A stretch of 59,684 bases of DNA, the filler included, from Sluysia triapertura (taxonomy: Eukaryota): NCBI GenBank assembly GCA_046118255.1. It is 5 parts of 5 records of this genome, joined end to end, with 100 filler letters (N's around TTAATTAATTAA, not from the genome) between each part and the next. Parts side by side here need not be neighbours in the genome. Positions count along the whole stretch, not along the records: positions 11,922 to 24,105 come from JBJNIA010131182.1; positions 24,206 to 36,166 come from JBJNIA010152494.1; positions 36,267 to 47,461 come from JBJNIA010187578.1; 2 more parts are not named here. One strand, written 5' to 3'. Made by a program: the position numbers and the translations under genes. Within the stretch, counting starts at the first letter, position 1. Each line of letters begins with the position of its first letter. Positions 14,621 through 46,520 of the stretch are shown piece by piece. Under the pieces are notes generated by a model. The model was not told the origin of the DNA and did no database searches. It saw nothing but the letters and a program-made list of their open reading frames with translations.

Positions 14621-16228
14621 TTTTAAAACTATGAAAGTTAATATTTAATCACAAATAATGAAAACGTTCTTTCGTGAATTTACATTTATCAAAATGTAAA
14701 AATAAGAACAATAATAAATTTATAAAATTTTACAGTAATTAACTATTAGTTAATTAAATCCTTAAATAAAAACAGATTTTTCGAGAAACTGTTAAAAGTT
14801 TCAAGTTGTATTAAATGTACTTTGAGTGTATTTTACGGATATACTGTGTTAGTATCGAGCCTTAAAATAAAATAAACTAACGTTACAAAATTAAATTAAT
14901 GAAAAGCAAAGATTGGTTAAAGTCGATCTGAAATAATGTACGACGGCGTGCAACTGTATTAAGACTTGAGAGATCCGTACAAATTCTGTATTTGTTTATC
15001 GTAAAAAATTTTTGTGAAATAATGTGAAAATGTGTGACTTTTTATACTTGTTTCAGATCGACCTTGGCTTTTAAATTTAAACAAATAAGAATATTAAATT
15101 AAATATTAAATTTAAATATTAAATTAAACGAATAAGAATATTGAATAATACATTTATTCTTTTTAAATTTAAATTAGTTCCAAAATTGTTAATAATTGTA
15201 ATAATTCCGAAATTGTTAATAATAATTGTAAATTCAAATAATTATAAAAATCAATAATATTAATTATGTTATTCATAATGTTATGCACAAATAAAAATCG
15301 ATCATAATATACACAATACACAAATGTAATTTTGTTCAATCTAATAATCAAGGATCAATTAATTGTACTTTGTAGAACAATACAAAACGATTGTCAATTA
15401 CAAAATTAATAACCAAGAATCATCCAGTTGATGTAGCAGCTTGTCTTGGTGTACCATGAAAAATCGCCGAATCATCATAGTAAATATAAGAAAAAATGTA
15501 CTTACTCTTGTATTAAGTACTAGTTTATCTGAGTTAATATTATAAATAATAACTATCAATGTTACATAAATAATCATTGAATCACTCTATTAATTGTTTA
15601 CAGAACCCCCACTGATACTGCAATCAATAAAATAATTTCTTAATTACACTTAAAAATATTTTGAGGATTTAAAGATGTATTTTCTTAGTTTTATCTTTAA
15701 TAGAAGATACAATATAACCTTTATTATTAGTAGATATATACATGCTTTGATCACTATCAAATTTCTTTGATTTTAACTTGATTGTGTTTCCATTTTTAAT
15801 TCGTTTAATGCTTATATTTTCCAATTCTCGTCTTTCATTTGTGCTTTTAATGATTTAGTAGAACTGTGCGATAATTTTTTGTATCATTTCCGATATCTTA
15901 CTACCTATTGATTTATTATATTGAAATTTAATATAGGTAAAGTAGATGATTAATCGTCATTTTTATAATGTACCAGTTCTAATTTATTTGAATATTTATT
16001 TACAATTTAATCTTCATTTGTACTTATATTATTATCTGATTTATCATGAATACAATTTATGTTCAACTGATGGACTTGTTTAGGTTTTCACTGTTTATTC
16101 ATAGTTTCATAAATGTTCCCGAAATATTATAATGCATGATTTATTTTAAACGATTTTGAGTATTTATTTAATGAAATTTTTGTGAAATTACTTTAGAAAA
16201 AGCAAAATTATTTTAGTTTCAGAAGTAT

Positions 16229-16385
16229 TATTGGGATATAGGCCTGAGGTACCACTTAGTATGGTTGACTATTCTAACCTAAAAATTGTTAGACGGGGAC
16301 TGATATCTCAGTGGTAGAGCATCGAACTGCGCAGCTAGAGATCCCGGGTTCGGTCCCCGGTCAGTCCATTTTACGAAGTCTAACA
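16229..16385 (+). mobile_element. tRNA-containing solo mini-LTR, TSD GTAT
   Basis: T(a)TTGGGATATAGGCC...TGTTAGAC-tRNA-like-TTTT-ACGAAGTCTAACA with gtat on both sides. Confidence 0.9.
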
Positions 16386-16574
16386 GTATTATAATGAAAG
16401 ACTTATTCTAAGCAATTTGAACAATATGATGAAATAGGCACAAGTGGTATTAATAGAAATAATAACAATAAAATTAGCGATAAAATAAGAGAAACAATAA
16501 AGAGATATATACATGAATACAAATATACATACAAACAAGAAGAAACCAAATCTTTCAACAACGATAATAATATG

Positions 16575-16576
<2 letters not shown>

Positions 16577-16645
<69 letters not shown>
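16577..16645. repeat. (TTA)n microsatellite
   Basis: Pure run. Confidence 0.95.
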
Positions 16646-18539
16646 GGACTGCGTTTGACTAGGGGTTTGATGTGTTTTAGTTTATTTAATAACATGTTTA
16701 AGGAAAATATGTTTAAGTTTGTTTGTGAGTTGATTTGGAGTTAAATTATAAAGTTAAATTTTTTGCATTATAATGAGCGTACTGAGTAAAAGTATATATC
16801 AAATTGATGCTCATTGACGTTTCAAAAGATTCAAACGATATGATTTAAAATAAGCTTAATATTTGATTAGATTTATATTCAATTTAAATTGATGTATTAT
16901 TGTATCAATTGTGGTGGTTCAATCACAATGAACATCAACAAAAAATTCACACACATAACGAACTAAACTTTTAAAACATTTAAACAGCTCACTATATAAA
17001 ATCTTTCAACTTTAAAATAAATTTTACAAAAGAATAAATAATATTGCTGGTATTTTCTTATACTTTTGCAAATTATTTATAATTACTATGGTCCGCTTAC
17101 GATATACGATTTAAACCTAAGGAGACGTATTCGTAAGTAACAGCATTTAAACTCAAGATTTTCTCTGAAAATATCCTACATATATTTCCTTCAGCAATAG
17201 AAATTATCTTATTCTTGCAAAACTTCTGAGGGTTTTCTATTAAATTAGTCTGTTAATTTATATTCAAACTATTTTAAGCTCTATGTAATAATTATTTATC
17301 GTTTACGAAACCTTTATTTATTCCTTTAATTTTTTAACTTTTCGTTTAAATATGAGTTCAGCTTGAGCAGCGGTTCTATAAAATTCCTTATTCTTATACG
17401 TGTAAATATAAATATATACTTGTAAATATATATCCTTTGTGACTCTTACTTATTTAATCGCATATAACTCGCACATAATACTTTAATATTTAATATTTTT
17501 TTCCTTTTTTAAATAACTGACCATTTTAATTAAATCTTAACTATGTTTATCTTCTGTTGTAAATTAAGTTTAATTCAAAATCTATTAGGCGACAAATTAT
17601 TCAATAAAATGGATTAAACGTTGTTTTCTATTAATACTTTAATGATCTTACTAGCTTCAGAGTTATAGTTTAAAATATTATGTATGAATTTTATTTGCTT
17701 TAATTCTAAATCTGTTTCTTTTCTTTTCCAAATGTAACAAAATAGCACCAAAATCCGAAAATACATTAATAAAAACAAATTATTCAAAATATTAAAAATA
17801 ATATATAGTTATTACTAGAAAATAAATTCAGATATAATTAAAGATTTTAAAAAATGATTTTATGTTTAGTCTAAACTAAACTTGCTATTCAAAATTTACG
17901 TATTATTTTGCATCTCCTAACAGAGATAAAACTTATCATAAAAAGCTTACTCATAATTCAAAAATTCGGCCACAGATAAAAATGATTTTGTTTGAATAAT
18001 GCCGGAACCAAATCCAATAGCGTAACTCAGAATACATACTAAATCGGATAATTACACCAGAAACAAATCGATTAATCGCCAAGTAAATTGATTACCAAAT
18101 TAAACAGTCCCACCAATGAAAGTGATCCAGTAAATAAGGAGTAATTGATTAAATACAAAATAACTTTGTAATTCGTGGTAAAATTCCAATTAGTTTAATA
18201 TTGAACTTGTGACCTGTCTTTCGAGAGTGACTATTTTGTACTAATAATAATGATTATTCACTAACAAATATTTATTTTTAGATATCCGCAAAGTCAATTA
18301 AGGTAATTATTTTTATTAATATGAAATTAATAATCATTTATTTTTAGAAAAAGGTGATTTACGGTTGATTTTTTATTATTTTTTTAATTTTATTATTTCA
18401 GCTTCAAGTACCTGGACCTAGAATACTAACAATATGATAAATATATTTCTCTAAAAGTATACCGAGTTTATATGAAGTTTAAGTAAAAATAAATAAGCAG
18501 TAATTTGCATGATGACTAACAATTTATTTGGTTCACTTA

Positions 18540-19200
18540 CAGTCCAATCCAAGTTACTCAGTCGATTTGGTCTCCATATTTTAATAACTAATGATTCTCC
18601 GCTTTCCTCAAAAGCACAACTCCATTCACTATACTCTGATTTTCATTAACTTATCATTTATTTGTTTTTATGCTTCCCTTCGAACTTCTTTATAAGGATC
18701 ACAACTTAAACGAATAATCTTGTCAATTAAATCGAAAGCAATTTTTTCATAATGATCAATTAGAAAGAGATGAAAATCTTTATATATTTTTCCCTATCAA
18801 ATACTCGTGTCCTCTTAAATGAAATCAATTTCTAATTGATAATCACTCCTAAATAAAGGCACAATTATATTTTTAAACGTAATATCGCTTTTATTTTAAC
18901 ACAAGATCGTATTTTATCAGCTTTTATAACAGCAAGTAATGATCTAATAATATCAGGAGTAATCTCCATTTTTATTTTCAATCGCCAGTCTTGGTTTGAA
19001 TCTAAATAATGCAGTAAAAAGCCAGTTAAGTAACCAAGCAATGCAAATTTGGATATAATATACCTATTATACATTTTTAAGAAAATTAATTTAAACAAAT
19101 TCAATATATTCGCCGAATAATCCAAATCTAAACCTGAAAAATTATCGTCCCTTTTATTTTTCGATTTTAAGTAATTTTCCATGAAATTAGTCATTTCTGT
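18540..19200 (-). mobile_element. Highly decayed LTR-retrotransposon reverse transcriptase fragment
   Basis: RYIISKFALLG...FLLHYLDS...IRSLLAVIKADKIR...LYLGVII follows the order of the RT FGL, YxDD and YLG motifs. Confidence 0.4.
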
Positions 19201-19721
19201 AGTGAAATATTTACTATCGCATATTTCAATGTAAAAATAATTGTTTTAAATTTCTAATAATCTGCAAACACTTATTTAAAATATAAAAATGATTGAATAT
19301 TATTTTAAGATAATGTCTATTTATAATCATGTACTACATTAAGATTACTATTAAGACTGAATCTTTCAGAAAATTAGATACGATTTTGAGAGATAATGTT
19401 TCTATTTTATAAATTTTGATTAAACGATATTGTGCAATTTTGAAAAGTAAATCATTTTTATTTACTAATTTTTGGCTTTTTTACTGGCTTATTTACTAAT
19501 TCTTGCATCACAATTCTTTCTTCGATGACGAATGATAAATTATGCAATAATCAATGGTATGTAACTATTAATTATTAAATCGTTAATTATTGTCTTTATT
19601 TAGAATAAATTTTTCTTTAATTCTTTCATCTTACATGATTTTGAATATAAATACAACATATATGTAATTAAGTCAAGGATGGAAATGATCTGTAAAATCG
19701 TGTTATTACTATGACGTAGTT

Positions 19722-20363
19722 CAAATGTGCTCAAACTAGGGAGCGACCCCCCGGACGGGGGGCGCGTGTTAATAATTTGGGGGCACTAAAAATTTTAAAA
19801 TTGTTAGATTTTACAAGGTTTTGTTTTTAATTTGAATATTTTGTTTTTTACCAATTCAAATAATTCCATCATTTAACTCCTTAATTTATGTTCTTGATTT
19901 AGAACAATCATCAAGAATAAAATTTCAAAGCAAATAAACTTACAAATTGTACATGTGCACTAGAGATGTTATGCTTTTTGGCATTCTGCTATTTTTTAGC
20001 TGTTAAATAAAAATAATGTTATTTAACATTATCGCAGTCGCGAAATAGCAGCTATTAAATAACAGCGACGTGTTAAAAAAATGTTAATATTTCACAGAAG
20101 CGAAATATTAACAGACATAATATTACATTTCTGATATAAAGAATTAAACTTTAATTTTTCTTTATTTTTGTTAAAGAGTTAGAACTGTTTTCATAATATT
20201 TAATTTATAAGAAACGGAAAAATACATTTTGTTACTAAAAAGGAGTTTATTTTATTTATGAAGTTTTTTTCGCAGTGGCGTTATGATTTTTTTATTAAAT
20301 TGGGGGCGCCAAAAATAAATATGTTGAAATAGGGTCGCAACTTAAAAAGTTTGTGCACGCCTG
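19722..20363. mobile_element. hAT-type MITE
   Basis: Imperfect TIRs caaatgtgctcaaact / (reverse) caggcgtgcacaaact. The 8-bp flanks acgtagtt and atatagtt match at 6/8. GC-rich subterminal motifs are present. Confidence 0.75.
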
Positions 20364-21643
20364 ATATAGTTAAAAGGTTGAAGTTGGGATAACTTCTAGA
20401 ATAAAGTTGTAAAATTATTGAGTATAAAAGTGGTAAGATAGTTAAGGGTGTATGGGACAAGATGTGAGAATTCTTGATGACGTTTGTTGAGTGGTTTATG
20501 GATTAAAGATATTTCTTTTTTACTGTTGAGTTTTTTCTTTGTTTCTTTATTTAATATCTTCAATTGTATAATTTGTGGTTTGATTACTTAATTTTTTAGT
20601 AATACCTGCATAATGAATGCCTAGTGCAAAGTTCTTATTGAACGATTTAAGGTAAAAATATTATATTGGGTGATGCTTAATTTTAAATATGAAAGTGACT
20701 TATTATGCGTACCTTTATATGATTTTATCAATCGTTTATAAATATTTATATATAGCATGATGTGATTGTCACTATATTCCATTAACCACAAAATTCGATA
20801 GCAACTATAAGTTTTATTATAAAATTGAGAACATATAGGTAAGATCATTAAACCGAAGAAAAATTAAATGCAGAACAGATCAGCTGTTAAGTTTACAGTA
20901 TGAAATTCCTTTTATTTTATCAAAATACTTAAACATTTAATTATCTTGTTACCTACTTTTAAGTTTTTGATACGATGCCGTTTGTTTCATAATATTTTTG
21001 ACGCTAATTAAATGTAATACATCAGGATGTTTCTTACATCCCAATTTTAATTTGTCGTCTGACATTAGTAGCATTAAATAAAAGTTAATTTTACTTACAA
21101 TTTTATTATCAAGCAGCACAATTATAATTATTATCCCAAATTTAATTTCAACACAAAAACTTACAACATAAGTAAACAAATTAACTTTATTTGCATAAGA
21201 TACAAATTTCTCAATAAGTTATTCAAGGACATGTTCGTTAAATGTAAGCTCCAATTAAGTGTACTGTTTAAAAATCTAAAAGCGGCATATCGTGGATACA
21301 ACAAAAACTTAAAATTTATATTTCATCACAATTCAATAATCAAATAATTTTAATACACTAAAATTCAATTAAAAAAGACATACTCTAAATAAAATAATTC
21401 CTAAAAATAAAAGTAATTTATTAATACTTTTTGGAGAACAATTAAATACAAGATTAGGGGTTGAAATTCAATAGGTATTTACACTCACTCAATATGAGAT
21501 CACTTTTGATTCTCTTATAATTTCTGTCACCACATATCATTTATTTCAACCACAAAAAAGCAAATAACAAACAAAAATAACAAATTAAAATATAAATTGC
21601 AATAGCGTTGCATAACATTACAACATTGAATTAAAACGAGCTC

Positions 21644-22307
21644 TTATATTTTGTAAGTATACTTTGCTCTACTACTAGACTTGTTCTGAATATCTGTGTG
21701 AGATGTGTAATCAATTTGAATCTGAATATTGAGCGCTTCCTTTATTTTAATGCCAATTCGTTTAATAGCATCCTCAGATTTACAATCAGTTGTCCAAACG
21801 CTAAGTCGGTCACCCTTTCCTCTGATGTTTACAACAGCACCGCATATTTCATCAGAATCATCTTCGAATGTTTCACCAACTAATAACATCAAGATTTCCA
21901 ACCAACATGGATCTAAATTGGAGCTTCTTTGATGTTTTTCAAATGTCAATAACCACATACCCCCATTTTTATTCTTTTCATCTTCCCACATTGGTTGTAT
22001 CGAATCTTTGAACACATAGTAATCACATCCTAGAGGTAATCTGGATGGAGGAGCTATATGATTCATTAAACCCCAAAAATCTTCAACAGTTTCAAAATCA
22101 ATCACTTTTTTCATGTTTTCAATCCATGCTTTGGTGCGGTCATTTTTAAAGAAATAAAACGCCCATCTAATAAAATAAACTACGAAAGAAAAATAAATAC
22201 TTATTTTGTAAATAATGTACTTCACCATCGATGTTATTCTTAATTGTCTCACTTTCTTCTTCTACTTCTAAAGTATTTAACTTATTTATAACGCCTTCTT
22301 CATTCAT
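21644..22307 (-). CDS. eIF4E: Eukaryotic translation initiation factor 4E (class I), 209 aa, two coding exons
   Basis: Exons 22307-22201 and 22166-21644 with a 34-nt GT-AG intron. Motifs HYLQNKWAFYFFKND, FETVEDFWGL, IQPMWED, GGMW, ICGAVVNIRGKGDRLSVW. The ORF-track N-terminus reads through the intron and is wrong. Confidence 0.96.
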
Positions 22308-23182
22308 CTAAAATACAAAAATATGTGAAAAACGTAATATCATCGTGTACATAAAATTAATAAACCAACCTCACTAAACAACAAAATTCGAATAATAAAG
22401 TATTAAAAATTAAAACAAAAAGATAAATTAAAAAGTTTAAGTTTTAATATAAATAATTAAACATAGTTGTAAATATAATTTACTTTTATAATTAATAAGT
22501 ATTTTTATATGTTATTAGTATTAATTTTGTATACACTTTAATTTGAGCAGTTTTTATGTAGACTTCTTAATAATATATTATTATATTATAATTATTAGAT
22601 TCTTTAACTCAAATATATAAAAAAGTAAGTAATATACAGCAATAAGTTAACAAAATTTAACGCTTACTTTATGGTATGTTTTGATTAAAATTTGAGATTA
22701 TTATTAAATATTTTTGTATAATTTAAAAACGAAAAAGATTGAAATTTATATTGATAATCATTATGTACAATATAACAAAAAGCTAAAAATTAATTAAAAA
22801 CAACAGTGACAAAATTTCTCAATAAATAATGACTAGGTGTGCTGAAAGTTTCGCTTTTAAGCTTTAAAGCAAAATAGTTTTAACTTAAAGCTATTCAAAA
22901 AATTTAAGTTTATTAAATTAGTGGTATCTACACTTAAGGTTTGCTTTATTCATATTCAGTGCTGTTTTGCTTTATACACTTACATAACTTATAATTTGCA
23001 TAACTTATACGCTTGATTATAAAAAATTAAATTAATATTTTTAACATGAAAAATTTTTAGTGTTTTATGCAGAAATATAATATAATCAATAAAAAGATTC
23101 TATTAACAATGAAAAGCATAATTCCACATAATTTTTGTTTTAGTCTGCTTCCAGGACCACTACTTCAATCACTTTATGATTA

Positions 23183-23311
23183 TGTTGAGGTTTAGGCCTA
23201 AAGTGCCAATTAGAATAATGATAGTATAATTGATTATAATTAAATAAAATTGTTAGACAGGGCTGATAGCTCAGTGGTCAGAGCATCAATCCATTTAATG
23301 AAAATCCTTAG
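23183..23311 (+). mobile_element. tRNA-containing mini-LTR, degenerate copy
   Basis: tgttgagg...ggcctaaagtgcca...tgttagacagggctgatagctcagtggtcagagc; the 3' half is deleted or eroded. Confidence 0.8.
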
Positions 23312-24105
23312 AAAATCATTATTATATATAAGGGCTATATTCTTACAAAAGACGTACCTATAGGATTTATCTTAAATGTTTTCTTTAAAAGAAAAAGAAA
23401 GAACTTTGAGGGTGCATAACACCTAGATAAACAGCCAGTAACAATATACTCTTCCTTTATGCAAGTTATGTGTTTTGCTTCGAGTTATTAAACTTTAATG
23501 GCTAAAGTTTTTAGCAATCTTTTAATAGTACAAACGATTTATTTCTATCTTGCAGTAATGTTTTCTATGTTATTGTTAAATTTTTCTTTTTATCTTTCTA
23601 GAACTGTTTGATTCTTTATCAATCAAAATAAATAAGTAAATAAATAATAGTCCAAAGTATATTCACAAAATCACATGAAAGAAATTGCTCGAAGGCAATA
23701 TTTGTTAGTCTAATACTTGGTTTTAATCTTGAATAATATGGATATTGCTGTGGTTTTCTTAAAATAAAATTGAGCAGGGTCCGGCTATAGTAAGCGTCTT
23801 ATAACTAGTAGTTGGCACTTCTATAGCTTATAAGTATACAAATTATGCTTATCTTATTTTACTTACACTATCTAGAGGGTCAAAAATTTATGCTTTTACT
23901 AAAAAATAACTAGAAATGGAATTTTTATTATTAAACTACACAATAATATTAATTAAGACAATAATAATAATACTAATAGAAAGGTAAGTTAAAAATCAAA
24001 ATTTGAATAAATATTTGATTATTTTAGATTTAAATATTTTAATAAAAAGATTCCTCTCAGTAAATCGAGGAAGGAAAATGATCAATTAATTATTTTGAGT
24101 CTAAT

Positions 24106-24205
24106 NNNNNNNNNNNNNNNNNNNNNNNNNNNNNNNNNNNNNNNNNNNNTTAATTAATTAANNNNNNNNNNNNNNNNNNNNNNNNNNNNNNNNNNNNNNN
24201 NNNNN
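24106..24205. other. Assembly linker
   Basis: N44-TTAATTAATTAA-N44. Confidence 0.97.
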
Positions 24206-25624: not shown

Positions 25625-26105
25625 TATTAATTTAATACAAAGATTTAATGTTTGGCGATGAACTATGTTCTGATTCCGATCCTATGAAATTGGTTGATTA
25701 TATAGTATATGAATTTGAAGGTAAACGGATAACCATAGTGAATGAAATTAGTGATGATTTAATTGGAGGTAACGCTTTGCAAGAAGAAGCCGTCGAAATG
25801 TCTGAAGACAGTTATGAATATGTGATGAACATTACACACAAACGTAAATTGAAAGAAACTACGTTTACCAAGAAGTTTTATAGTTTATATATCACAGATT
25901 ATTTGGAAAAGCTACTCTCTTTGCTGGGAAGCAACAACCCCGAAAGATAGCCCCTGCTTATGTTAGTACTATTTTAAAAATTTTTGATAATTATCAATTT
26001 TGTACTGGCGAATTAATGATTGCTGATGCAACTGTCATGTTGTTGAATTATCGAGAAGATCAGATTATTCCTTATTTCATTAATGTTAAGTAAGGTGTTG
26101 AACGT
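25625..26105 (+). pseudogene. TPT1: Translationally controlled tumour protein pseudogene (intronless)
   Basis: YKDLMFGDELCSDSDPMKLVDYIVYEFEGK, LIGGNALQEEA, TKKFYSLYITDYLEKL, NYQFCTGELM...LLNYRED. No start codon; several in-frame stops. Confidence 0.92.
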
Positions 26106-26450
26106 ATTCAAGACGTGAGAACTGAATACGTTGTAAAAGATGTCGCTACGTATGCAAAGAAAGTCAAAGATGATCGTATTAGAAATAAATGCTTGATTGT
26201 AGTTTTATTTAACTACAATTTGAAATTATTTGAAATTATTTCACAATTATTTAGATATTTTTTGTAAAATGATATAAATGATTTTAAGCTTGAGATAATA
26301 ATAGAGTCTTTTACTGATAGCGTAATCTACGGTGTTGGACGTATTCAAAACGTGATAACTGAGTACAAAATCGAAATCGCATGGATCCTCGAAGAAATTC
26401 CAGGTCCGGTGAATCTGAAATCGCGGTTTGTCCGACTTTATCTGTGTGAG
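26094..26450 (+). repeat. Short direct repeat (26094 and 26331), possibly RTE-LINE C-terminal remnants
   Basis: ggtgttgaacgtattcaagacgtgagaactga versus ggtgttggacgtattcaaaacgtgataactga. Translation GVERIQDVRTEY...VATYAKKVKDDRIR. Confidence 0.35.
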
Positions 26451-26699
26451 AATTTGAATTTGAATTTTGTTTGCGTGTCAATAATGACTTTGTTTGTGTC
26501 TTATATCTTTAGTAACACAATTAAATTGTCTTATTTTTATTTAATTCGCCCTCTGAGTCATGTAGTAATTATTATTAAGTGCCTTAAGCACGAAATTATT
26601 AATAAAATTTTCAAATATATGAAAATTGAATATAATGATATATTTTGTAATTTTTATAAAATCTTCTCAATTTTTTACGACATAATCACTAAGTAATCA

Positions 26700-27050
26700 A
26701 AATAATAAACATTACACAACAAGATACAGAACACAAAAGTTTGATTTATGATCACCTATTATTATTTGCTACTCTACTTGATCTGTTTTTATTTAAATTA
26801 ATTCTCACGTTAAAATAACAATCACGATACATAAAAATAGTTTTAGTTTTTAGAATTCACTTCTAATGAAAAATGTTTAAGGCTCTTATTTTTAAATTTC
26901 AAAATTCAAACTCACTTCTAGATTCTCTTATTTCATAGAAGTCATCTCCTATTCAATTCATTATTCTGAATTTAATTCTCTAATTAAGAATTAATTAAAA
27001 TTTGATTTTGCTCAATATTAAGGCTGTTCTTACATCGAAAAACCTTTTTA
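26700..27050 (+). repeat. Repeat family B fragment
   Basis: Shares ttctcac.ttaaaataacaatcac, cttatttcata and taattaagaattaa with 35100-35600. Confidence 0.7.
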
Positions 27051-32109: not shown

Positions 32110-32388
32110 TGATGTATGTTCTTCGCAAATGGTATCTTTATACTTCAAGACATCTTTCCAAACCCTACTTAAGTCTTCATAAGGGTCTCAATACCCTTCA
32201 AGGGTCTTTGGAACTCCAAGGTGTTCTTCAGTTTCAAAACGATTATAAACATTTTACTGTTCATTATTCTTGCTCTATGAATATTATATTATCATATTTC
32301 ACATATTCTATATCACTTTTCGTTAAATATATTTTAAATTCTTTTTCACGTTTATCTACTTTCTTACACTAATTGGACACTCCCAACA
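32110..32388 (+). repeat. Repeat family B terminal segment ending CCCAACA
   Basis: Homologous to the reverse complement of 45420-45680 and partly to 35880-36040. Confidence 0.75.
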
Positions 32389-33672
32389 GGAAATAATATA
32401 AAATTTTAATATATTTAATATATATTTTTAAATTATAATATATATGCACTCAAGGGCCGATGCATAGATGTCAGCGATTAAATAAATGGAAGTACTGGAG
32501 GTTAAAGAAAATGTTTTGGACAGCTTTTGATTATTCTTTCGCTAAGTTTCGCGAGTTTATTTTGTATTTGATCTGAAAAGATCTACAACCTACAAATGAG
32601 AATTATTATAAAAATAATCAACAATTTTTTCTTATGCGAAAAATATTTTTTAAATATTTGTAGCTATGTTATTTGGGTTTAATTTCATGATGAAAGAAGC
32701 GTATTACTACTGATCAAATGTAAAATAAGAAAATTCGTTAATGTATATTAAAGTTTTAAACAAAATTAATAATATACAGGTATTAGAGTGTATTTTGTAG
32801 TTTATAATTTATATTCTTGTATAATTTGTATAATATTTCTTTTTATCTAGGAATAATTATTTTTTATTATAATAAATTTTAAGTAAAATAAATTTTAATT
32901 TAAAATAAAAATTAACTTTTAAAATATAAATCTTAAAATTTCAAAAATTTCAAACATTACTTTATTAAAATTTTAAAATGTGGATTTTAATATTTTAATA
33001 TTTAATACTTACTTTAAATAAAATAAAATTTAAAAAATAAATTAAAAATAAAATTTTTTTTATTTTCTTTAAATAAATCAATTTAATAAATAGATGACAT
33101 CTTCCAGTATGTAGTAAGTTTTATATAAATAGGTAAAATTTTTATAATAATAATATATTAATTTATATTGCGCTCATATCTACCGCGAAAGTACTTAAAA
33201 GGTAAATCACCATAATATTTCTGAAACAGAAAGAACAGAAAAGTTTTTCAAAAAATGTTTTAGAAGATAGCAATTTTATTCCATGCTTTTCAAGTAATTT
33301 TTATTGTTAGGATTTGCCTATTCACCTTAAGAATGGAATAGTAAAATAGAATTAAATTCATTTTTATTTTCAAGTAACACCTTAATACATGTTGAGTAAC
33401 TTATTTTTAAAATCTTTAAAAACTTCCAACCGAGGTTGAGCTAGTTAATAAGCTCATTATTGATATTATAGTTTTGTAAAAAAAACTTCGTAAGAATTTT
33501 AATTAGTTTTTCTTTGTTGATAATATACTTTAAGAGTGTTCGACTGTTCTCAATCGATAGTGTAATTTCAATAAAATTATAAAATCATTTTTGTTAGCAA
33601 CACTTTAATATGGGTTGCGTAATCTTATAAAATATTATTATATCTTTCAAAGCAACACCTTAACACGGATTG

Positions 33673-33831
33673 TGTTGGGGTAAAAGGCCTAAAAAGTGCC
33701 AAGTAGTATAATTGAATATATTGAAAATGAAATTGTTAGAAGGGGCTGATAGCTCAGTGGTAGAGCATTCGAACTGCGCAGCGATGGTCCCGGATTCGAT
33801 CCTCGGTCAGTCCATTTTACGAAGTCTAACA
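33673..33831 (+). mobile_element. tRNA-containing solo mini-LTR, TSD ATTG
   Basis: TGTTGGGG...GTCTAACA with attg on both sides. The tRNA-like unit spans 33743-33814 with box A TAGCTCAGTGG and box B GATTCGATCC. Confidence 0.92.
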
Positions 33832-35029
33832 ATTGCGTAATTATAAAAACTATAATTTTAATTGAACAACACCTCGTAAAGGGTTACAAGCGATTAATCA
33901 TTATCATATAAGCCGTAAGTCATAGGTAAAAAGTTTTTCTAAAGTTATTAAGTTAAGTTATAAAAAAATCCGAATAGTACGTCTCCAATAATGGTATAAA
34001 CCGTATATATTAGGCGAACGGACTCATCGCAAGTAGGTTAAGTTTTTTTAAGAAAAACATTCGCACAGGTAAATAATTTTGTAAAATAGTAGTATATTAA
34101 AATATTAAACGAAATCAATAATTATGCAAATTAGTAATTGTCGACTAAAAATTTTATGAGATAATGATTATTGATAGCAATAAAAATATGGGATAAAAAG
34201 TAAACTAAATAATTAAAAGCAAAATTTATACGACAATATTTCTATATATAGATCAATCAAATAAATAATCAAAACGTAAATAACAGCTGAAAAGTAAAAT
34301 AAAATTTATATTAATAATATTATTTAACAATAATATTTTTTGTAACTGTGTTTAATAAGGTTTATGTACGTAATTAAATTAACTTTTGCTATAGTTTTAT
34401 CAAATTTTTCGTAATATATTAATAAAATATTAAAATAAACTTAACTTTTAAATACTAACGATTATTGTTTTTCCTTTTTAAATAATGGAATTATTCAACA
34501 AATAAACGTAATAAATTAAATTTCTTGAACAAATTTCTTAAATTTCTTAAGCAAAGAATTTTTCAAAAATTTAAAAATTACAAAATAGTTATTATTGTTA
34601 TTCACTATTTACATATAAATTCACAATAATATCATCAGACCATTGATCATTGAAATGATGCTTGTGACTAATAGTACATAAAATAACAATATGATTAAAT
34701 AATATGAATAATATTTTGTGTACTAGATGATAACTCTAATAATAATATTTTTAATAATTATAATATCAATGAATGTTTCATTTAATAATAATAATATTTA
34801 ATAATAGTAATAATAATAATATTTCATTTAATAACAATTTTCATTTTTATTGCATAATTTACAAAATTATATTATTATAAAATTATATTATAAATTATAT
34901 TATTATAAAATTATATTATAAATTATATTATTATAAAATAGACTATCAAAATATTAAACTCAATAAAATATACATTATTACATTCTTACAATATTTTGTG
35001 AATTAAACCGACAATAATAATTTTTAAAA

Positions 35030-36040
35030 TTAAATGGTACGGCTTGTCAGAATTTGTTAGGTATAGAACACTAAAAATTGATTAATGATCAGCCATTATT
35101 TTTCTTTTCTCTACTCGATTTATTTTTACTTAAATTATTTCTCACATTAAAATAACAATCACAATATTGTAAATACACATTAAAATAATAAATTTAATTT
35201 TAGTGTTGGAATGTTGGCCTAATGTGCCACTTAGTATGGTTGACTATTATTGTAGTTTTAGGTTTATTATTTAAGAAATTTAAATTATTGCTATCTCTTT
35301 TGTTGTTTATATTATTACTAGGAGTTTTATTTATATAAAGTCTATAGTTATGACAATATCTGTGCCAAAGGCACTCGAAAATTTCTTCATGAAGGAAAGC
35401 TTTTAATATTCTCAAATAAACAATTATACAAATTATAAAATTATAAATTTAAAATTATAAATTCCTTATTTCATAACAATCATCTCATATTCCTTTCATT
35501 ATATTTTCATCATTCTAAGTAAGAAAATTCAATGTTCCATAATTAAGAATTAATAAAATTTGGACCTGATCAATATTGTGGCTTTTCTCACATTAACTCA
35601 TTCAAACTATATCTTCATCGAAAGATCTTTTTAAAACAAATACATACACACATATTTAGCAAGTCTTTCCTCATTCAAACTTTGATTAATTAATTTATTT
35701 TTAGACTTAATTACTTTGTGCGGGAAAGTTCTAAAATTATTTAGTGCTTTATAAAACACTAGGGAGTTTTAGATGCTTTCACGTTGACCACTTTGATTCC
35801 TTTTATACTTCTTCACATCAAATTTATCTTCGTATCAAATTTATCTTTATTATTAGTAACAATACTCAATTTCTCAAACGTTTTAAAGATTTCAAAGGTC
35901 TCCAAGACTTATCAAGGTTTCAAGATTACTTAAGTTCCTAAATGATCTCAAGGTTTACAATTTCAAAGATATTTTAATGCTTCTAAATGTTTTCAAACTC
36001 ATCTCAGACCCTGTAAATGTCTTTGGAACTCCAAGGTATT
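35030..36040 (+). repeat. Repeat family B, long copy, containing the 5' arm of the mini-LTR at 35204-35250
   Basis: Collinear with the reverse complement of 45580-46520. The segment tgttggaatgttggcctaatgtgccacttagtatggttgactat matches the mini-LTR start. Confidence 0.7.
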
Positions 36041-36166
36041 ATATATATATGTGAGAGTATGAGAGTATGCTGCAATGGATGAAGTTGTGTATGCTGCAAT
36101 GGATAATAATTTGTAATAATTTGTGATAAAGCTGTATTAGATAATAATTTGTAATAATTATGATTA

Positions 36167-36266
36167 NNNNNNNNNNNNNNNNNNNNNNNNNNNNNNNNNN
36201 NNNNNNNNNNTTAATTAATTAANNNNNNNNNNNNNNNNNNNNNNNNNNNNNNNNNNNNNNNNNNNN
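36167..36266. other. Assembly linker
   Basis: N44-TTAATTAATTAA-N44. Confidence 0.97.
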
Positions 36267-39200
36267 TATTAAAATCCATTAACTTAAATTTTCAATTTTC
36301 TATATTAATAAGAAAATTACATATCAAGAGCTCTTTTTGAAAGTATTATAACTTAACTAGAACCTCCATATACTTTGTTAAAAGAATCTTTTGATAGAAA
36401 ATCCAACGGCTGGACCTAACCGGTAAGCCCAATACGTTGAACTCACTTTAAGCTAGGCGTTTTATTCTATTCTATTCTTCCTTACTTACCTAACGATTTT
36501 AAATATGTGACTCAATTAGCCAAAGATATGCGTCCTTTATTGACATTAACAGAAGTGAGAAACATTAATGTAGCAGAGGAGGATCTCTGTGATTTTCTAT
36601 TTGAATACGATAGTATCACTGAAGCATGCAAAAAAATTAAGAGAATCCAAAATTTTTTGACTGGAGAGGCGATCCAGACATACAAAGAAATAGGTAATAA
36701 TGATAATCAATCTTGGAATGCATTTGTAAATGCTCTCACCGATGAAATAGCACTCAACGACATGGGAAAATGTTAAATGTTAAAGCCAAACGAATCTGTA
36801 TATGAATTCGCTTGTGCTCTTAAGACTTATTGCCAGGGCAAAAGTTCCTGAAGATAAAATAGAATCAATATTATTAGATAAACTAAAAACTGGTCTGCGT
36901 CCAGAATTAAGGACATATATTACATTAATGGAAGGCAAACATTTTAAAGAAATAATTAAAAAACTAATAAACATAGAGAGACCTCATTTTGATAAGGATA
37001 ATGATAAATTTAAAAGGGATAAAAGCCCAAAATTTATAAGGAATAAAGATAATTTTGATGATAGATATGTTAATAAAGCTAATAATACCAAATTATGATG
37101 GATATAATAATAATAGAAATAACAATTACAATAGATTTAATTGCCAATGTAGGAGCACTTCAAATAGTTATAGGGATAATCCAAATAATTATAATTCAAA
37201 TTAAAGAGGAAATAATAATAAAGGTAGAGGATTTCAGAATAATAGAACAAGTAATTATGGTGCAGTCAACTATGAACAAAGACCAACACGAGATAGCCAC
37301 CTAGTCTAATTTCAATAATCAAAACAGTTATAGGAATAGAAGTAAAAGCCCAATGAAATACGAAAATAATAAAACAAAAACTAATCTAGATGGAGAAATA
37401 ATTTGTGATAACTGTGGCAAATATGGATACTATGTTGGAAATTATAGAAAATTAAAACAAAAATATCAAAGTCTTAATAGGAAAGTAAGATTTAATGATA
37501 TTACAAATAAATTGTAATTACATAAAATAGATTACAATAGCAAAAATAAATATGAAGATGAATATCAGTATGAAGAGAAAAGGAATAAGAAAATTAAGAA
37601 GAGAAATGAGCAGTGTTGAAGATGATAAATATCTCAAATTAATAACCGATGAAGAAAAGAATTTATGCTTTGAAATTTCTATATTAGAGGATTAGACTGA
37701 GACAAAACTTATTCAAAAACAAACGAGAAAGAAATGTTTATGAGTTATATGCACGAGATATTTGAATTTCAAGAAGGGAACGAGAAAAAGAAAATAGATT
37801 AACTATCCAATCAATTCAAGATAGAATTCGAGAAATATTAAACCGAAAAATGGAAGAAAGAATTGAACAAATAAAGCAAATAAATGAGGTAATTACGAAT
37901 AAAGACGATAATAAAAGAATCCAATACTTGACAAATTGGAAAGTAAACCCAAGGAAAGCCATTAAGAAAATTAATAAAGAAATATATTCAAAATCAAAAG
38001 AAAGTAATGATGAAGTAAAATCAAATAGAGAATATATTAATACAGAAGAAATGAAAGACGAATCAAATAAACAAGAGTTGAATGAAGAAATAAGTTTAAA
38101 TGATGATTAAGAAGTAGAAACTGATATCGAAATTGTTAATAAAGAAACCAATGATGAAGAATTATAAGCAGAAGAAATGGATATAGATGTAGAATAAACG
38201 TATTATAGTGCCACAGAAGAAATGGAATCGATAATAGTAGATCAACTAACGAAAAAATGGATACCCCAGAAATGAAAATCAAAGATTTTGATCAACAAGT
38301 GCCACAAATTATTGAATTCAGAATTAAGTATACAAAATGGATGTGATGCTAAATTAATATTAGCTATTTTAAGTAAAGAGAGTTTATATAAGATTAAGGC
38401 AAGAAAATTATTAAGAAAAATAGACAAAAGAGAGAAAATAATCATAAATATTTAATGAAAATAAGTATAATTATTAACAATGCCTTAAATATTACGATGG
38501 AACTTTCTGTAATTTCAACTGTAAAAGATATTATAAAACTATTTAAGTCGAATGACTACTATAACTGATGTTGATTTATATTTGTATGATAGAAAATTAA
38601 TACCCAATGATTTTATAAAGGATTACGGCTATCCATCTGTGATGATGATAAAAACTATACAGATAACTATACATAACATTAATATGTGATGTGTGTGCTT
38701 CATTATTTTGAACAATTTAAAATAAATAATTCATCATAATTTATGTGAACAATTTTTATCATTGTAGTTTTATGTGAATTAATGATTAGTTTGCGGAATT
38801 TAATGTAAGATCTTTTTATTTTTATTTTTATTAATTTTATTAAAAATTATAAATCTATAATTAAATCTAACGTCACTAACACATTAAAACATGTATATAT
38901 AAAGGTTCAAATTTTTAAAACAACTCGCAATAAAATTTTTAAAAATCTTTAAAAGGAAAACAAGATTTTTGGCCAGACACGCGAAGATTTCGTACAAACT
39001 TTAATTAGACTTTAATTGGATCAAACCAGATTATAAAGACAGTCCTACAAAAATATTTTATTGAGTGACGATAGTTTGATAATTTATAATATTTGATATA
39101 AATTTTATATCATACGAAAAATAAACTTAAAACCTGTCATAAACTTAAATTAAGCTTAATGAACTTACAATAGTTAATTAAAGTAACTTTTGATCATTAT

Positions 39201-39597
39201 TATTAACTGTATTTGTATAATTTTTACATTTTTTGTATAGAATAAAGAAATTTTTCGTATTACGATCATTTCAACTTAAATAGTTATAAAATCTATTAAA
39301 AACCCATTATCTGTTTTCAAAAATCTAGAATTTAATTCTTTAACGTAAATTTTCATTCATCGATTCCATGTAAGGGAATCATTCGTAAAATATATAACTA
39401 AACTCGAATTATTTAATAACTCAAATTAAAATCCTTAAAATATCTACCTTCAGACAAGAGACTTACCGAAAACCTAATTTTTTCTTTTGCACTAATTTTA
39501 TAAAAATCCAACGGCTGGCCCTAGCAGGTTAATCCGGTACGTTGGTGGATTCACATACTCAACTTCTTTTATTCTATTTGCTTCTCACTTTTCCCAC
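36267..39597 (+). mobile_element. Decayed Gypsy-like LTR retrotransposon: LTR, gag, low-complexity remnant, LTR
   Basis: Family C LTR cores near 36399 and 39505. Gag-like frames 36507-37500 read DLCDFLFEYDSI, FLTGEAIQTY, SWNAFVNAL and LKTGLRPELR, with a degenerate knuckle ICDNCGKYGY at 37401. No pol was seen. Confidence 0.7.
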
Positions 39598-40234
39598 AAT
39601 ACCATCATCCATAATAACATAATCTTTAGAATCAATTTATTTTCCGGCAATAATAGTTAGAATAATGTAAAATTTTTATTTGTAACATTTTCGTATCAGT
39701 ACAATTTTATTCAAATTTACGTGTAATGACGCATAACCAATTATGGGGTCACCAACGCATATTTAATTCTCTGACTAATTGAGGCATTGTAAAAATTATA
39801 AGTAAATACAGCAAAAGTGGCTTCCAATTTACACTAAATTCTATTGGTTAATATAGTACACTAAAAAGATTTTAATTTTATCTTGATATTCGACAGTCAT
39901 AAACTTTATACTTACATTTTGTTAGTTTCGAATTATGTTTTGGGCAAATTCTATAAAATTATTTAGCATTTTCAATTAATGTCAGCACTGCTTCACTCAC
40001 ATACTTATATTATTTGATTTAACTGTTACTGTTCTTACTAATACTGAAATAGCAATAACCAATTTAAAATATATTTGTAACCATCATTAGCTTATAAGAA
40101 CTGTGTTTCACAATAACAAAATCATTTTTATTGTGTTTTGCAATAAAAACTTATATAATTATTTTATAGATTTTTATGAAAAACTATTTTATATTATTTT
40201 TATGATTTCTTACTACAAAAGACTAAATTATTAA

Positions 40235-40305
40235 CACATTATGAGCGGGTATTCTTAAGTACAGTCCATAAAACGGGTAATAATACCCGCCCCGCTCATA
40301 ATGTG
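40235..40305. mobile_element. 71-bp piggyBac-type MITE
   Basis: Perfect 15-bp TIRs CACATTATGAGCGGG / CCCGCTCATAATGTG with TTAA on both sides. Confidence 0.85.
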
Positions 40306-41689
40306 TTAATTTAATTTATAATAAACAAAGGAAATAAAAGAAAATTAATTTATTAATAATCCGAAATAAAAATAGCAATAAAAGAACCATCAAAATTCGC
40401 AAACAGAGAAATAAATCTACAAATAAACGTAGACAAGACGATAACAAATTCTGAATTACACAAATCACGAGTATTGCACAAAAAATCAAATTCGAGTTAA
40501 GGATTTTGAATTTATTCAGACATATAGTTTCTTCCATTTTGTGGTAAGTTTTAATTAAATAGGGTTATTCTTCTTCTTTAAGGGAAGAATTAAACTACAC
40601 AATTTTTCAGCTAATTTAAGTCTAGCTTCAAAATCTCCCTAAAATATAATTTGACATTAAGTGAAAAGCCTAATATATTAATTTATTGTTTAAATATAAC
40701 GCGCTCTTTCTTACTCACGATTTAAACTCAAATTATTTATTTATAATCTGTCAGCTCTATCAAAATGCTTTTAGCTTCAAAATTTTATTCCTAATCTGTC
40801 ACCTTAGTAAACTCTTTATGTATTTGAATAGCTAAAATAATTTAGCTGAAACATGTATAAATTTAATTTTTTAATCAATAAAAGGAGATCACTCGATCCT
40901 TAATCCATAGAAATTAGATAACCAGATAAAGCTCTCACACACTGGGACTCGCAGAAATTCTGCCATAAACACTTTAATGAAAAATGTAGAAACTATTATG
41001 TTTCAGCAGATGTCTTGTAGCTCAAATTGACTGAAAAATTAAATCCATTTAATAAATAAAACAATACATTAACTAATATCATGAAATTGAATACTGATAC
41101 AAATAATTATTAGAGCGTATCCACTTATTCATACTATAAATCGGTTTCAAGCACCGCCTCTGGTTTCAAATTCGTCTGCTTACATAAAATAAAAATGTTT
41201 TTTAGGCATAATGAAATATTTTACTATTTACTTTTGATAAAACTAAAATTTGATATTGTCATTTTCATATTTATAAAAACTCAAAAATTATTACACGTAC
41301 GTTTAAGTTATATTAAAAACTATGTATCGAAAATAATGTACATTTATTCAAACAATTTTTACGAAAGTTTGAGTGTACGTTTACTTAAGTTACAATGTTT
41401 TTAAAATTAATGACTTTTTCAAATATAACTAACAATTTTCCTGGGTTTATTAAAATTAAGATAATATCATATAAGGAATTTATAACAAAGTTCACATAGT
41501 TCTTAAAACTTAGTTTCACTTCATTGTTCGTAAAAGAATCGAAATTAACTGTTACATTTATATTCTCATTTTCTTCTTCATTATCGCTAGATACCGCAAC
41601 ATCCTCAGCTTCATTATCAGTGTTGCAATTGTTTGAATTATCTTTATTATTTATCATTAAATAACAACCACTTGACTTTCATACATAAA

Positions 41690-42480
41690 ATTACGTTTAG
41701 TTAGGATCAATAAAAATCAATTTTTTAAAAATATTTTAATAACTTTTATTATTATAATTTTTAATTTTTATATTTTCAGATATAATCAAAATTGGATGTG
41801 ATATTACATTTGTAGCACCGCAAATTATGCATAGAAGTGAATTTGAACTAGCTATAAAATAACCACGTTTATTAAAAAATGGATCAGTTACATTATAAAT
41901 AACAAGCCAAATCTTTCAGTGTTTAGTTAAAATTGGTACATCATTTATTGACCATTCCATATTTTGAAAAGGAACGAAGAAATATTCCACAATTTGGTCT
42001 TTTTTTATTATGCATTAAAAAAATGTATTTTTAACAATTTGTGTGCAATTATCTTTAATGTGATAAATTATATAAATATCTTCTCTAAAAATGCATTCAG
42101 TATTAACATTGCACGTATAATAGTTGTAAGAACCGTAATCAATTTCTGTTGTTACATTTTCTGTAATTAATGTAATCAAATAAAATAAAATCATTGATTA
42201 AGTATAGGTTGAGAAGAGAAACTATTTATTGAATTCTTTTTCATTTTGTTTTAAATAATTTAAAGATGAAGTTGATAACGATACAGATGATAACAATTTG
42301 CGATTACTATGACTACTGTTGTTAGTATTATCATTTATTCGAGTTTTAAATGCGGTTGAATCTGACATACGAGCACTACAATAACGTTTTGGCACAGATG
42401 ACGTATTAGCTGATAATGACATGTCTTGTCTATTAGAACGATTATTATCAGGCACACAAGTTGATTTTGAATGAGACATT
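41690..42480 (-). pseudogene. Decayed unknown protein-coding sequence
   Basis: Long frame with few stops: YGSYNYYTCNVNTEC...WLVIYNVTDPF...LLCIICGATNVISHPILIISE. Confidence 0.35.
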
Positions 42481-45419
42481 GACTTTTGATTGATGATTTC
42501 TGTTTGTTGTAACGTGTTATAAACCCAAGAAGCAAATACATTATTTTGTTCTATGCTTTCCTTTCTTTTAATCGTTTCAAAAATTCTTAAGTTTAGAATA
42601 AATTTAAAGTATTACTTTAAAAGCTTAATTGTAAATTTAAGAATAAATTTTTATAGTTGATAATTAATAATATAGTTCATTATTTGAAATAATAAAATAT
42701 TGTAATTATTATTTATTTTATATTATAAATGTATTATTACAATATTAAAAAAACCTTTTATAATTTATTATACATTATTCTGATTATATCACCATGTTTT
42801 ATTAACCTTAAAATCTTGTTTTTAAAATTATCGTAAAATTTTTTTGAATTTAATTTTAAAATTTTTTAGAATTTAATTATAAAATTATTAGTTTTCAAAC
42901 AATAATAAAAAGAAAAGTACTTAAAAATAAAATATATTCTATAATTAATAAAAATTTAAATATCCACATTCTATCATACCTATGATACAAATTATTAAAA
43001 CACATTTAACATCTTGCAGAATTATTAGAAATTTAAGAATATGATTTATTTTACTAAAATTATATGTGAAGTAAGTTGCATGTTGTGCTTCTTAAGTATT
43101 ATTGACTTTTCGTTCAGAAAATAATAGCGCAAAAATAAATTAATCGTTATTTGAGTTGCGAGAGATTCAAGAAACTTATAAAATGAAACTAGAAAAATAA
43201 AGTTTTAGATAAAGCAAAATGCTGCTATGATAAACGAAAGACTGAGTAGTTAGACTGTTAATAGAATCCAAATAATCGGTTCGAGTTTCTGTAATAACGC
43301 GAAATAATAACTCACAAGGTATATAATTTCTTCAAATAAATATATACATCTCTAAACTCATAAAACAGTTCATCTACTAAAGTTCAATCATACTCACAAT
43401 CCTATAACATACGCATCACATTTACATCCAATATCATCAATTTACATCAACAGATCCATTAAACCTTAACCACTTTCAAAATTACCCACAATTTTTGTCT
43501 TAACATTAAATACAAATTTATATTTGTTAACGTCTTATTAATTCATTTCTATGGTCTGATTATGAATAAATTATGTAGAAGTTTTAAATGTATAATTCAT
43601 AGTGAATTTAGATTTAATAATACGAATAAAGTTCATATAATACTTGACGTAAAGGTTGAAATATCTATTAACAATTTAAGTTATTCTAGGCTAAATTCTA
43701 TAAGTTATTTACAAACATTGTTAAATTTGTATCATTTAGTAATAACTTTTAAAACATTATTAGAACAGTTTAAGACTAATTTTATATATCCTAACATAAC
43801 TTTACCAAAACGTTAATTATTTTTTATATATAACCTCACAAATATGAGGAAGTTAAATCTATTATATAAGGTTTAAACTCCATTAATCTCTCCTCAGAAC
43901 GGAATGGAATCTAAAAGATTAGAAATCTCATTCGAAGTATAATTGCATAAACTAAACTGGACAAATACACAATTACATTTATTTAATTACATTCATGTTG
44001 AATAATTGACCTCCACTATTCTTATTAAGTTAAAAATTTTTTTCTTTTATGAAAGTCTATAATCGTAGGCGAACTCATAACATTTTTATCTTTTATTGGT
44101 AAGATAACTGTTTCAAATTAACCCCTTCTAATAAGTTGAGAGGCAAATTTTTTGATAAGTAAGACTCAAACCCTTTGCATAAGAAACCTATAAGTTTCCT
44201 TTACTAATCAACAAAACTAGAAAAAGAGAAAATTCTTGCCATAAGTAATATTTTATTTTTAATAATAATAATTTTAATGCATTGATTTAATGCAAATCAT
44301 TGATACAAGTCGTTGATTTGATACAAATTAGTATAAATTCTTATTCATTTCAACCAGTGTCTCAAAATTTAAACACAATTATAAAACCGATTTTGTTTGT
44401 AGCTACAATTTTTAATGATGTTAATTAGTGTTTCGTTGTAGGCTCTATTTTGGAAACAATTTTTGATTTACCTTTTTAGAACTTAGTAAGTTGTCATAAA
44501 TCATAATTTATACTTAAATTTCTTTTATTGAGAATTAAAATCATAATTTAAATCAATTTAGAAAGAAAATAAATGCCTAAAAAGGTGTAAATTTAACATA
44601 TTTTATGAAAGCTTCTTGGATTATTTATCTTACAATTTTTATTATATATAATGAATTTGTGTTGTAGAATCGTACCCTTAAAAATTTCTTGTAAACTTCT
44701 TGCATATTCTATCGAAACTATAAGATATATTTAATTTATTTAGTTATTCAGATTAGTGTTAATTATGGACACACGACATAAGTTACTAATTCAATCAAAT
44801 TATTATAAATAAGATAAAAATATGTCTTTATTCTAAATATTCAATGTTAACTCAACAGTCAAATTAACACGTAATCTCGATATATTTCAAATATCACAGA
44901 AATAACAAATTATCATTTATTCTTTAAAAATAATATATAAATTCAAAATTATAAATCATTACTTCCATACAATTAATCAATAAAATATTCCAGGGTGACA
45001 GAAAACAACAAATATTGACTCCCTTATTAAACAATAATAAAATAATAAAAAATGTAGTTTACAACCGCAATAATAGTAATGTCGTTAGCAAAACTATGAC
45101 CATTGCTAAAGATAAATTCTCAAACATAGTGTTTACCACAAATGTGTTGAGGCAGTTTTCTTAAAGCTTTTTATTTTAAGTTTTTAAACTTGCCCAGATA
45201 TCTTGTTCTAGTTTCATTACAGAAATTGGAAAATGGCAATAATTACTTCAGATAATTATTCATTCTTTTTAAAAAATTTCAATAATTAAATTTAGACAGT
45301 AATTTCCGTCTGCTTCCAATTTTATTGTCTCCTGAAACTACCAAAAATAATTGGATTTGTGATGAACAATTCCCTTATCATTTGAACCTAACACAATCAA
45401 AATTTAATATCGTTATTAT

Positions 45420-46520
45420 GTTGGGATTGCCCAGTTAGTGAGTAGAAAATAGGTTAAGAGGTTAGAGAATATAAAATATGTAAGAAAAGTGATATAGAAT
45501 ATCTGTAGCATAATAACATAAGCATATTTCTAGAGCAAGAATGATGAAGAATGTTTACAGTCATTGTGAAACCGAAGAATACCTTAGAGTTCAAAAGACT
45601 TTTGTAGAGTAATAAGAATGGTATTAAAAGTATTAAAAGATACCCTTGAACTTTTAAACCTTAGGATTGTTTGAGAACTAGTTGAGTAACCTTCGAGTAA
45701 CATTGTAAAGTGTTTGGAACCTTTAAAATGTTCAATATTAATATCGTGGTTAATAATATTAAAAATGAACTTGATACATTTGTTGGGATACAAGCCTAAA
45801 GTGCCACGTAATATAATGGACTATATTAATCTAAAAAAATTGTTAGACGGGGCTGATAGCTCAGTGATAGATCATTCGAACTGTGCACGAGATCGATCCC
45901 GGTCAGTCCATTTTATGAGTCTAACACATTAATAATTGACATAAAAAGGTAGTTTGAGTGGTGAAAGTAAAAGCATCTAGAGCCCCTGAGTACCTTATAA
46001 AGTTTTTTAAAAATTTATAACCATAGTAAAACCATTAAACATAAAACAAAGTAAGTGAAACTAATTAATTAATTAAAATCTAAATGAACTTAATTAAGAA
46101 AAACTACGTTTCTGTGAATAACATTTGAATGAGGAATGCTATGTTCGTAAGAGATAGGGTTTGACAGAGTTCATGCAAAGAAAGCCTTCATATTTAAGAA
46201 AGTCGAATTTTAATTAAATTTTAAATTAAAAATGTCAAATTTTCCATCTTTAGAATGATGAAAAGATAATTAATTAAATACGAAATGATTGTTATGAAAG
46301 AGGAGAATTGAGATGAATTAAAAAATTAATTGAATTACAAAAAACTAAATTTAACTTCATCATTTTTGAAGTATGTTGATAATAATAACAATTGTTATTT
46401 TAATGTAAAAATAATTTATGAAAAAATACATTGAGTAGAGTAGAAGAAAATAATGGTTAATTGTTAATCGAATTTTTATGTTCCGTATCTAATAAAGTTT
46501 GTCAGGTTGTACTATGTAAT
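45420..46520 (-). repeat. Repeat family B, long copy, terminus TGTTGGGA
   Basis: Homology to 32110-32388 and 35030-36040. It is interrupted by the mini-LTR at 45781. Confidence 0.72.
45781..45926 (+). mobile_element. tRNA-containing solo mini-LTR, TSD CATT
   Basis: TGTTGGGATAC...GTCTAACA with catt on both sides. Confidence 0.92.

Follow-up and report, generated by a model that had tools for sequence, protein, structure and literature searches.

The window analyzed here is a stretch of 59,684 nucleotides, filler included, from the genome assembly of Sluysia triapertura (GCA_046118255.1), in which 5 parts of 5 records are joined end to end, and its main feature is a family of short repeats carrying a tRNA-like part. 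By self-comparison of the window, eight full or partial copies were found on four of the five stretches (Table 1). The original prediction had regarded three of them as solo long terminal repeats (LTRs) inserted by an integrase, and had counted at least eight copies on four unlinked contigs; the counts stand and two of the stretches map to different contigs, but linkage is not judgeable among the 263,945 contigs of the assembly. Each of the three solo copies is flanked on both sides by the exact 4-bp target-site duplication (TSD) claimed for it, and the chance of three matches out of three is about 6e-5, as estimated from shuffled flanks (1.55 of 39 pairs match). These copies keep about 67-70 nt upstream of the tRNA-like part (about 65 nt had been claimed) and have no tail. 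The proposed TG...CA termini hold at the 3' side, where all three end in CTAACA, but the first copy starts with TA. The nearest relatives of the second copy are 93-97% identical to it. Two minus-strand LTRs (47062-46934 and 46863-46724), overlooked before, are the LTR pair of one decayed element and enclose a primer-binding site (PBS). We read these repeats, with a probability of about 0.9, as solo LTRs of a non-coding element of about 410 bp, a Helenus-type terminal-repeat retrotransposon in miniature (TRIM), which is likely transcribed from its tRNA promoter and likely copied and inserted by Gypsy enzymes; that the family is a Helenus-type TRIM is in itself close to certain.

Table 1. Copies of the tRNA-bearing repeat family in the window (positions along the whole stretch).
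Feature	Position	Strand	Length	TSD	Details
Solo LTR	16229..16385	+	157 bp	GTAT	tRNA-like part 16297-16368, then T4; 35.8 bits (Rfam tRNA)
Solo LTR	33673..33831	+	159 bp	ATTG	tRNA-like part 33743-33814; 39.1 bits (Rfam tRNA)
Solo LTR, internal deletions	45781..45926	+	146 bp	CATT	
5' LTR of decayed two-LTR element	46934..47062	-	129 bp		U3 and tRNA part carry deletions
Internal region of the same element	46864..46933	-			TT spacer, tRNA-Trp PBS (common mismatched type), interior without the purine tract (deleted)
3' LTR of the same element	46724..46863	-			First bases and U5 gone; tRNA-like part 46727-46798; 39.0 bits
Decayed LTR	23183..23290	+			U3 and A box retained; 3' half deleted
Decayed partial LTR	1715..1794	-			U3 end, A box, U5
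LTR 5' fragment	35204..35250	+			U3 start alone

The family is abundant and mostly solo, as had been proposed. The exact 20-nt 3' end of the LTR occurs at least 7,284 times in the genome (control 0), and among the first 100 rows with this end, 9 continue into a PBS or interior when counted by eye. The ratio of solo to full copies is about 9:1 (95% range 4-22), which is likely an overestimate because the assembly breaks at young paired copies (8 of 31 copies sit at contig edges). The fixed duplication expected of an integrase is borne out genome-wide: a 4-bp TSD is exact in 25 of 39 solo copies and none has one of 5 or 6 bp, against 1.55 of 39 for shuffled flanks. The stricter figure, adding the TSD-less copy L013, is 25 of 40, and the third window copy lies outside the end pattern used. 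For paired copies, a table was built from 83 rows (the first 100 junction rows, 17 identical ones merged); 10 of 20 such copies have an exact 4-bp TSD and none has one of 5 bp, and identity between the two LTRs of TSD-bearing pairs is 86-98% (median 0.905, n=9).

The full element (e.g., L040, L054) has two tRNA-bearing LTRs of about 157 bp, a PBS for tRNA-Trp, and a 93-bp interior. The 20 paired copies span 306-420 bp with no coding capacity, and of 17 pairs in which the interior could be measured, 12 have one of 92-93 bp. Each LTR is composed of a U3 of about 70 nt, a tRNA-like cassette of 72-73 nt, a run of four T (T4), and a U5 of 13 nt; the interior contains, in order, TT, the PBS, an AT-rich spacer, a short purine tract, and TA. 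In the cassette, the acceptor, D and T arms are intact and the anticodon arm is broken. Conservation over 94 LTR rows, which were used also for the LTR tree and replace an earlier set of 39 rows of long LTRs only, is 0.95 in the A box and 0.93 in the B box, compared with 0.85 in the anticodon arm and 0.88 in U3; the values for U5 and T4 are distorted by the pattern used in the search. The A box was found in 35 of 55 cases and the B box in 32 of 55. Along the stretch that RNA polymerase III (Pol III) would read through, 45 copies have 6 T4 runs on the sense strand versus 96 A4 runs. The tRNA part lies between the arms of a perfect 8-bp inner inverted repeat; the idea that an ancestral LTR was shorter and began at this repeat was rejected, no copy having a TSD there. 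About ten copies (e.g., G000:C29988, C131737) are without U5, with a deletion between two CATTT words, T3 in place of T4, and the CA end abutting the PBS.

The tRNA-like part affects annotation. Three window copies exceed the Rfam tRNA cut-off; ARAGORN reported 0 genes in the window and 24 calls in 59 loci of the family (15 undetermined, 6 Arg-GCG, and one each of Ala, Gln, and Ser). The predicted inflation of tRNA counts is therefore real, and thousands of false tRNA calls are to be expected in this genome, but these are undetermined or Arg-GCG rather than Ala. The 5' half of the cassette shares 20 consecutive bases, in the D arm and anticodon stem, with host tRNA-Cys. The T arm looks Ala-like, although the tRNA-Ala compared came from GC-richer, likely fish contigs and is not the host's own gene. 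On the whole the original prediction is supported in part: its Ala label is not supported, and it does not identify the family with Helenus, a class already known.

Junctions of LTR and PBS occur 627 times in the genome (control 0). In most of them the PBS pairs with host tRNA-Trp over 10 nt, after which two bases are missing, and matches range from this common 10 nt to 18 nt. The two types of PBS differ in what follows. Among the first 100 of the 627 junctions, 7 carry at this point the bases of the tRNA itself (tRNA-type PBS), and 0 of these 7 reach the interior, versus 90 of 93 others (P=7.5e-9); this strict count of PBS type against continuation was used, and a looser junction classifier with 13% false positives was dropped. 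When tRNA-perfect junctions of at least 13 nt are collected (n=33), 29 join unrelated DNA without the interior, breaking at 13 nt (7), 14 nt (11), 15 nt (7), 17 nt (1), and 18 nt (3), and nine further loci fit this class, which we call LTR+primer-copy pieces. The 4-mer of the left flank is repeated at the break in 0 of the 16 pieces having a left flank, and target continuity across the insertions could not be shown. Eighteen LTRs of the class are 73-96% alike and a single clade is rejected (p-AU 3.6e-6); since they are scattered across the LTR tree, the event recurs. The interior opens with 33 nt that can be aligned with tRNA-Trp (positions 76 to 38, complementary strand), a decayed 39-nt complement, and at L084 all 39 nt are perfect, ending at position 38, after which the interior resumes. 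The interior likely originated as tRNA read-through of this sort.

Two LTR+primer-copy pieces join, in sense, the pol sequence of one Gypsy lineage (73% alike over 269 nt), a hint of co-packaging. This is a large lineage, with 2,966 candidates, and a broken copy with reverse transcriptase, RNase H, and integrase (L037, L237) has an extra aspartyl-protease-like frame after the integrase. In three pieces an inverted LTR comes next, both outer ends being U3 ends (L042:1356-1588, L089:1350-1754, L091:1348-1753), with 1, 2, and 3 of 4 TSD positions mismatched, respectively. Four pieces (L031, L042, L077, L090) adjoin one common other repeat family. The 10-nt PBS word without a preceding CA end is present in eight copies of another repeat (e.g., G000:C212123, C216741).

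We propose the following replication scheme. Transcription by Pol III would begin in the 5' LTR, at its tRNA-like part, pass the first T4, and stop at the second (about 330 nt), and tRNA-Trp would prime through only 10 nt of pairing. The first plus-strand product would consist of U3-R-U5 and 12-15 nt copied from the primer tRNA; being unable to pair with the mismatched PBS, it would be displaced, as in the polypurine tract (PPT) recycling of Ty1/Ty3, and would occasionally be patched into chromosomes by break repair without a TSD, leaving an LTR, a tRNA-perfect PBS, and unrelated DNA. The PPT-recycling model, with its dead-end first strand, predicts just such LTR+primer-copy species, and it would also explain the rarity of full elements with a corrected PBS (4 of 33). 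We consider it probable, from this agreement, that the class represents captured dead-end plus-strand strong-stop DNA. Solo LTRs would arise chiefly through recombination between LTRs. Since the PBS differs from the primer, each junction records whether RNA or tRNA was the template. Read with this natural marker, the junctions suggest that an animal LTR element, like yeast Ty1/Ty3, does not pass on the sequence of its primer, and that cDNA from dead-end synthesis finds its way into chromosomes. A comparison of PBS types of this kind could be made in every family whose PBS is mismatched to the primer, and is relevant to the origin of solo LTRs.

A variant that we regard as doubtful is that many solo LTRs were never full elements, the one-LTR second plus-strand product (and the dead-end first) being inserted directly. 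If this is true, a 157-bp Pol III cassette spreads as a bare LTR, with a SINE-like (short interspersed nuclear element) lifestyle on Gypsy enzymes, the LTR+primer-copy class is a marked by-product, and ratios of solo to full copies are no measure of recombination.

For the LTR+primer-copy class, we think it improbable that it is merely a tRNA-perfect subfamily of full elements from which the interior and 3' LTR were deleted; copies in this genome do undergo free internal deletion and four full-type copies have a tRNA-perfect PBS, but the interior is lost in 7 of 7 tRNA-type junctions versus 3 of 93 others, the breaks cluster at 13-15 nt, and the LTRs are polyphyletic. An assembly or library artefact is likewise improbable. 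The assembly is fragmented and of short-read type, some copies lie at contig edges (8 of 31), and the strands are skewed 26:6 in one junction set; against this, the skew is 25:13 in another set (perfect 13-nt sites), the pieces bear their own decay and differ by 4-27%, and the overlap between the PBS and the CCA-less tRNA gene is only 16 nt, which would be short for a k-mer jump.

For the family as a whole, a non-autonomous DNA transposon, namely a Ginger-like miniature inverted-repeat transposable element carrying a tRNA cassette, is very improbable. Ginger-like elements have TGT...ACA ends, a 4-bp TSD, terminal inverted repeats bounding the unit, and no PBS. The short inverted ends, the inner inverted repeat, and three head-to-head pairs resemble such a structure, but a tRNA-Trp PBS follows 627 ends and direct-repeat pairs share a single TSD; moreover, 0 of 10 copies flagged as lacking the outer U3 show a TSD at the inner repeat, and no class shows a significant excess of inverted pairs (2/37 vs 2/155, P=0.17). 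A tRNA-derived SINE inserted by target-primed reverse transcription, which the A/B-box tRNA-like head and the high copy number might recall, is refuted by the fixed 4-bp TSD and the PBS enclosed by paired copies, in agreement with the original rejection of a SINE. Of 23 copies, 16 begin at the LTR end and none close to where the tRNA starts, and there is a sharp CTAACA end and no tail.

The assembly is mixed: besides the AT-rich host, it contains mitochondrial genomes of teleost-like type, three in number and different from each other, as well as tRNA genes of bacteria (loci L100-L102, L141-L168). The element was assigned to the AT-rich host because its PBS fits the tRNA-Trp gene on a contig of 27% GC (L104), not that on a GC-richer contig. 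A host-type mitochondrial contig of 22% GC (L105:774-6000) reads AAA as Asn, a code which we take to be that of rhabditophoran flatworms (NCBI table 9), and has the gene order atp6-like, cox1, nad4-like, and nad2-like (neighbours named by eye); a broken nuclear insert of this mitochondrial DNA is found in L106. Host-type COX1 has no close relative, with at most 57% identity to anything found and a land planarian as the best match at 55%. The element thus belongs to an AT-rich animal, likely a rhabditophoran flatworm; this assignment is indirect, since the element is absent from the mitochondrial-insert contig examined. The eIF4E frame in the window failed to place the host (top named matches 56%).

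Several observations weigh against the Helenus-type reading and the replication scheme above. All of the evidence consists of assembled sequence. Decay does not explain the lack of a TSD in 14 of the 39 solo copies and 8 of the 20 paired ones; misassembly or inter-copy recombination is therefore common, which weakens the absence of TSDs as evidence for the LTR+primer-copy class. As for an autonomous partner, 37 of 38 perfect 13-nt PBS sites follow the TRIM's own LTR, none is recognisable among 65 looser PBS matches, and the Trp PBS occurs in 0 of 40 contigs of the Gypsy lineage joined by primer-copy pieces, in an assembly too fragmented to exclude a partner. The conserved purine tract, 2 nt before the 3' LTR, is only 8 nt long with 7 purines (one T), and shorter than the published G-rich tracts of Helenus. 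The T4 depletion is drawn from related copies and, for a single element, is only suggestive. Four of the 33 tRNA-perfect junctions do run on into the interior, the 18-nt m1A58 stop shows no excess of breaks (3 of 29), and microhomology is weak at one Gypsy junction.

Other features of the window include an intronless open eIF4E frame at 21647-22261 (-; Pfam IF4E, E 3.5e-56), 56% identical to the top named animal proteins, which is a retrocopy or an intronless gene. A TCTP fragment with a terminal stop at 25636-25947 (+) is likely a processed pseudogene, and an open frame of 284 codons at 48730-49581 (-) has hydrophobic stretches and no Pfam match. Decayed relics of LTR retrotransposons at 7500-8700 (+), 36441-38107 (+), and 57178-57450 (-) show integrase-like, gag-like (zinc knuckle), and RNase H-like traits by eye, with no Pfam hits. 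Old repeats 68-81% alike are located at 32186-32410 / 45396-45617, at 34994-35614 / 46152-46554 / 26722-27035, and at 5760-5936 / 55562-55725.

Helenus TRIMs (TRIMp3; Kojima, 2024, PMC10886601) are described as non-coding elements of 311-1263 bp with short tRNA-bearing LTRs and a PBS for a tRNA 3' end. The present family agrees with them in its two short LTRs, its A/B-box cassette with a broken and non-functional tRNA structure, its PBS after the 5' LTR, and its size below about 1.3 kb, and with animal Helenus in the 4-bp TSD, many solo LTRs, and inflated tRNA predictions; the Trp PBS is common to this family, the wasp Helenus-2_SyJa, and Gypsy-32_NVi (PMC10886601). Pol III transcription of Helenus is unvalidated in that paper. 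Differences are that the PBS here pairs with its tRNA over only 10 nt, that the interior opens with the decayed 39-nt tRNA complement, and that the likely flatworm host belongs to a phylum not in Table 1 of PMC10886601, so that the distribution of Helenus is extended to a likely new phylum. In the supplement of that paper the LTR-end and PBS motifs have no match (line breaks could hide one), and in the parts of it covered no mention of an LTR+primer-copy class was found. The literature search, which did not extend to subscription papers or Repbase, turned up no earlier account of Helenus in a flatworm or of LTR+primer-copy pieces in chromosomes. What is newly added here is the LTR+primer-copy class and the fossil tRNA complement; Helenus itself is already known.

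In the model of Lauermann and Boeke for Ty1/Ty3, as reviewed in PMC5371799, synthesis of the first plus strand ends once 12 nt of the tRNA have been copied, this strand is displaced as a dead end, and the primer sequence is not inherited. That model was shown in yeast particles, while the present scheme is inferred from animal chromosomal copies with stops at 13-15 nt. Lentiviruses carry primer over-extension sequence, and position 37 is a minor stop of reverse transcriptase (PMC13191261). As in lentiviruses, the sequence after the PBS is complementary to the tRNA beyond position 58, but the tract here extends to position 38 and has decayed in the majority of copies, and its pairing with the primer is putative. 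The ta-TRIM of taeniid cestodes (PMC4558846) is also a flatworm TRIM with a mostly 4-bp TSD, a 9-nt PBS, and many solo LTRs; it differs in its tRNA-Leu primer and 590-bp interior, and the text searched mentions no tRNA cassette or Pol III. Gypsy elements of the CsRn1 clade (PwRn1, CsRn1; PMC2582038) are autonomous, and none with this PBS was found in the present genome, but they share the tRNA-Trp PBS, the 4-bp TSD, and flatworm hosts, and by this analogy the clade would be the best candidate for the helper class of this TRIM.

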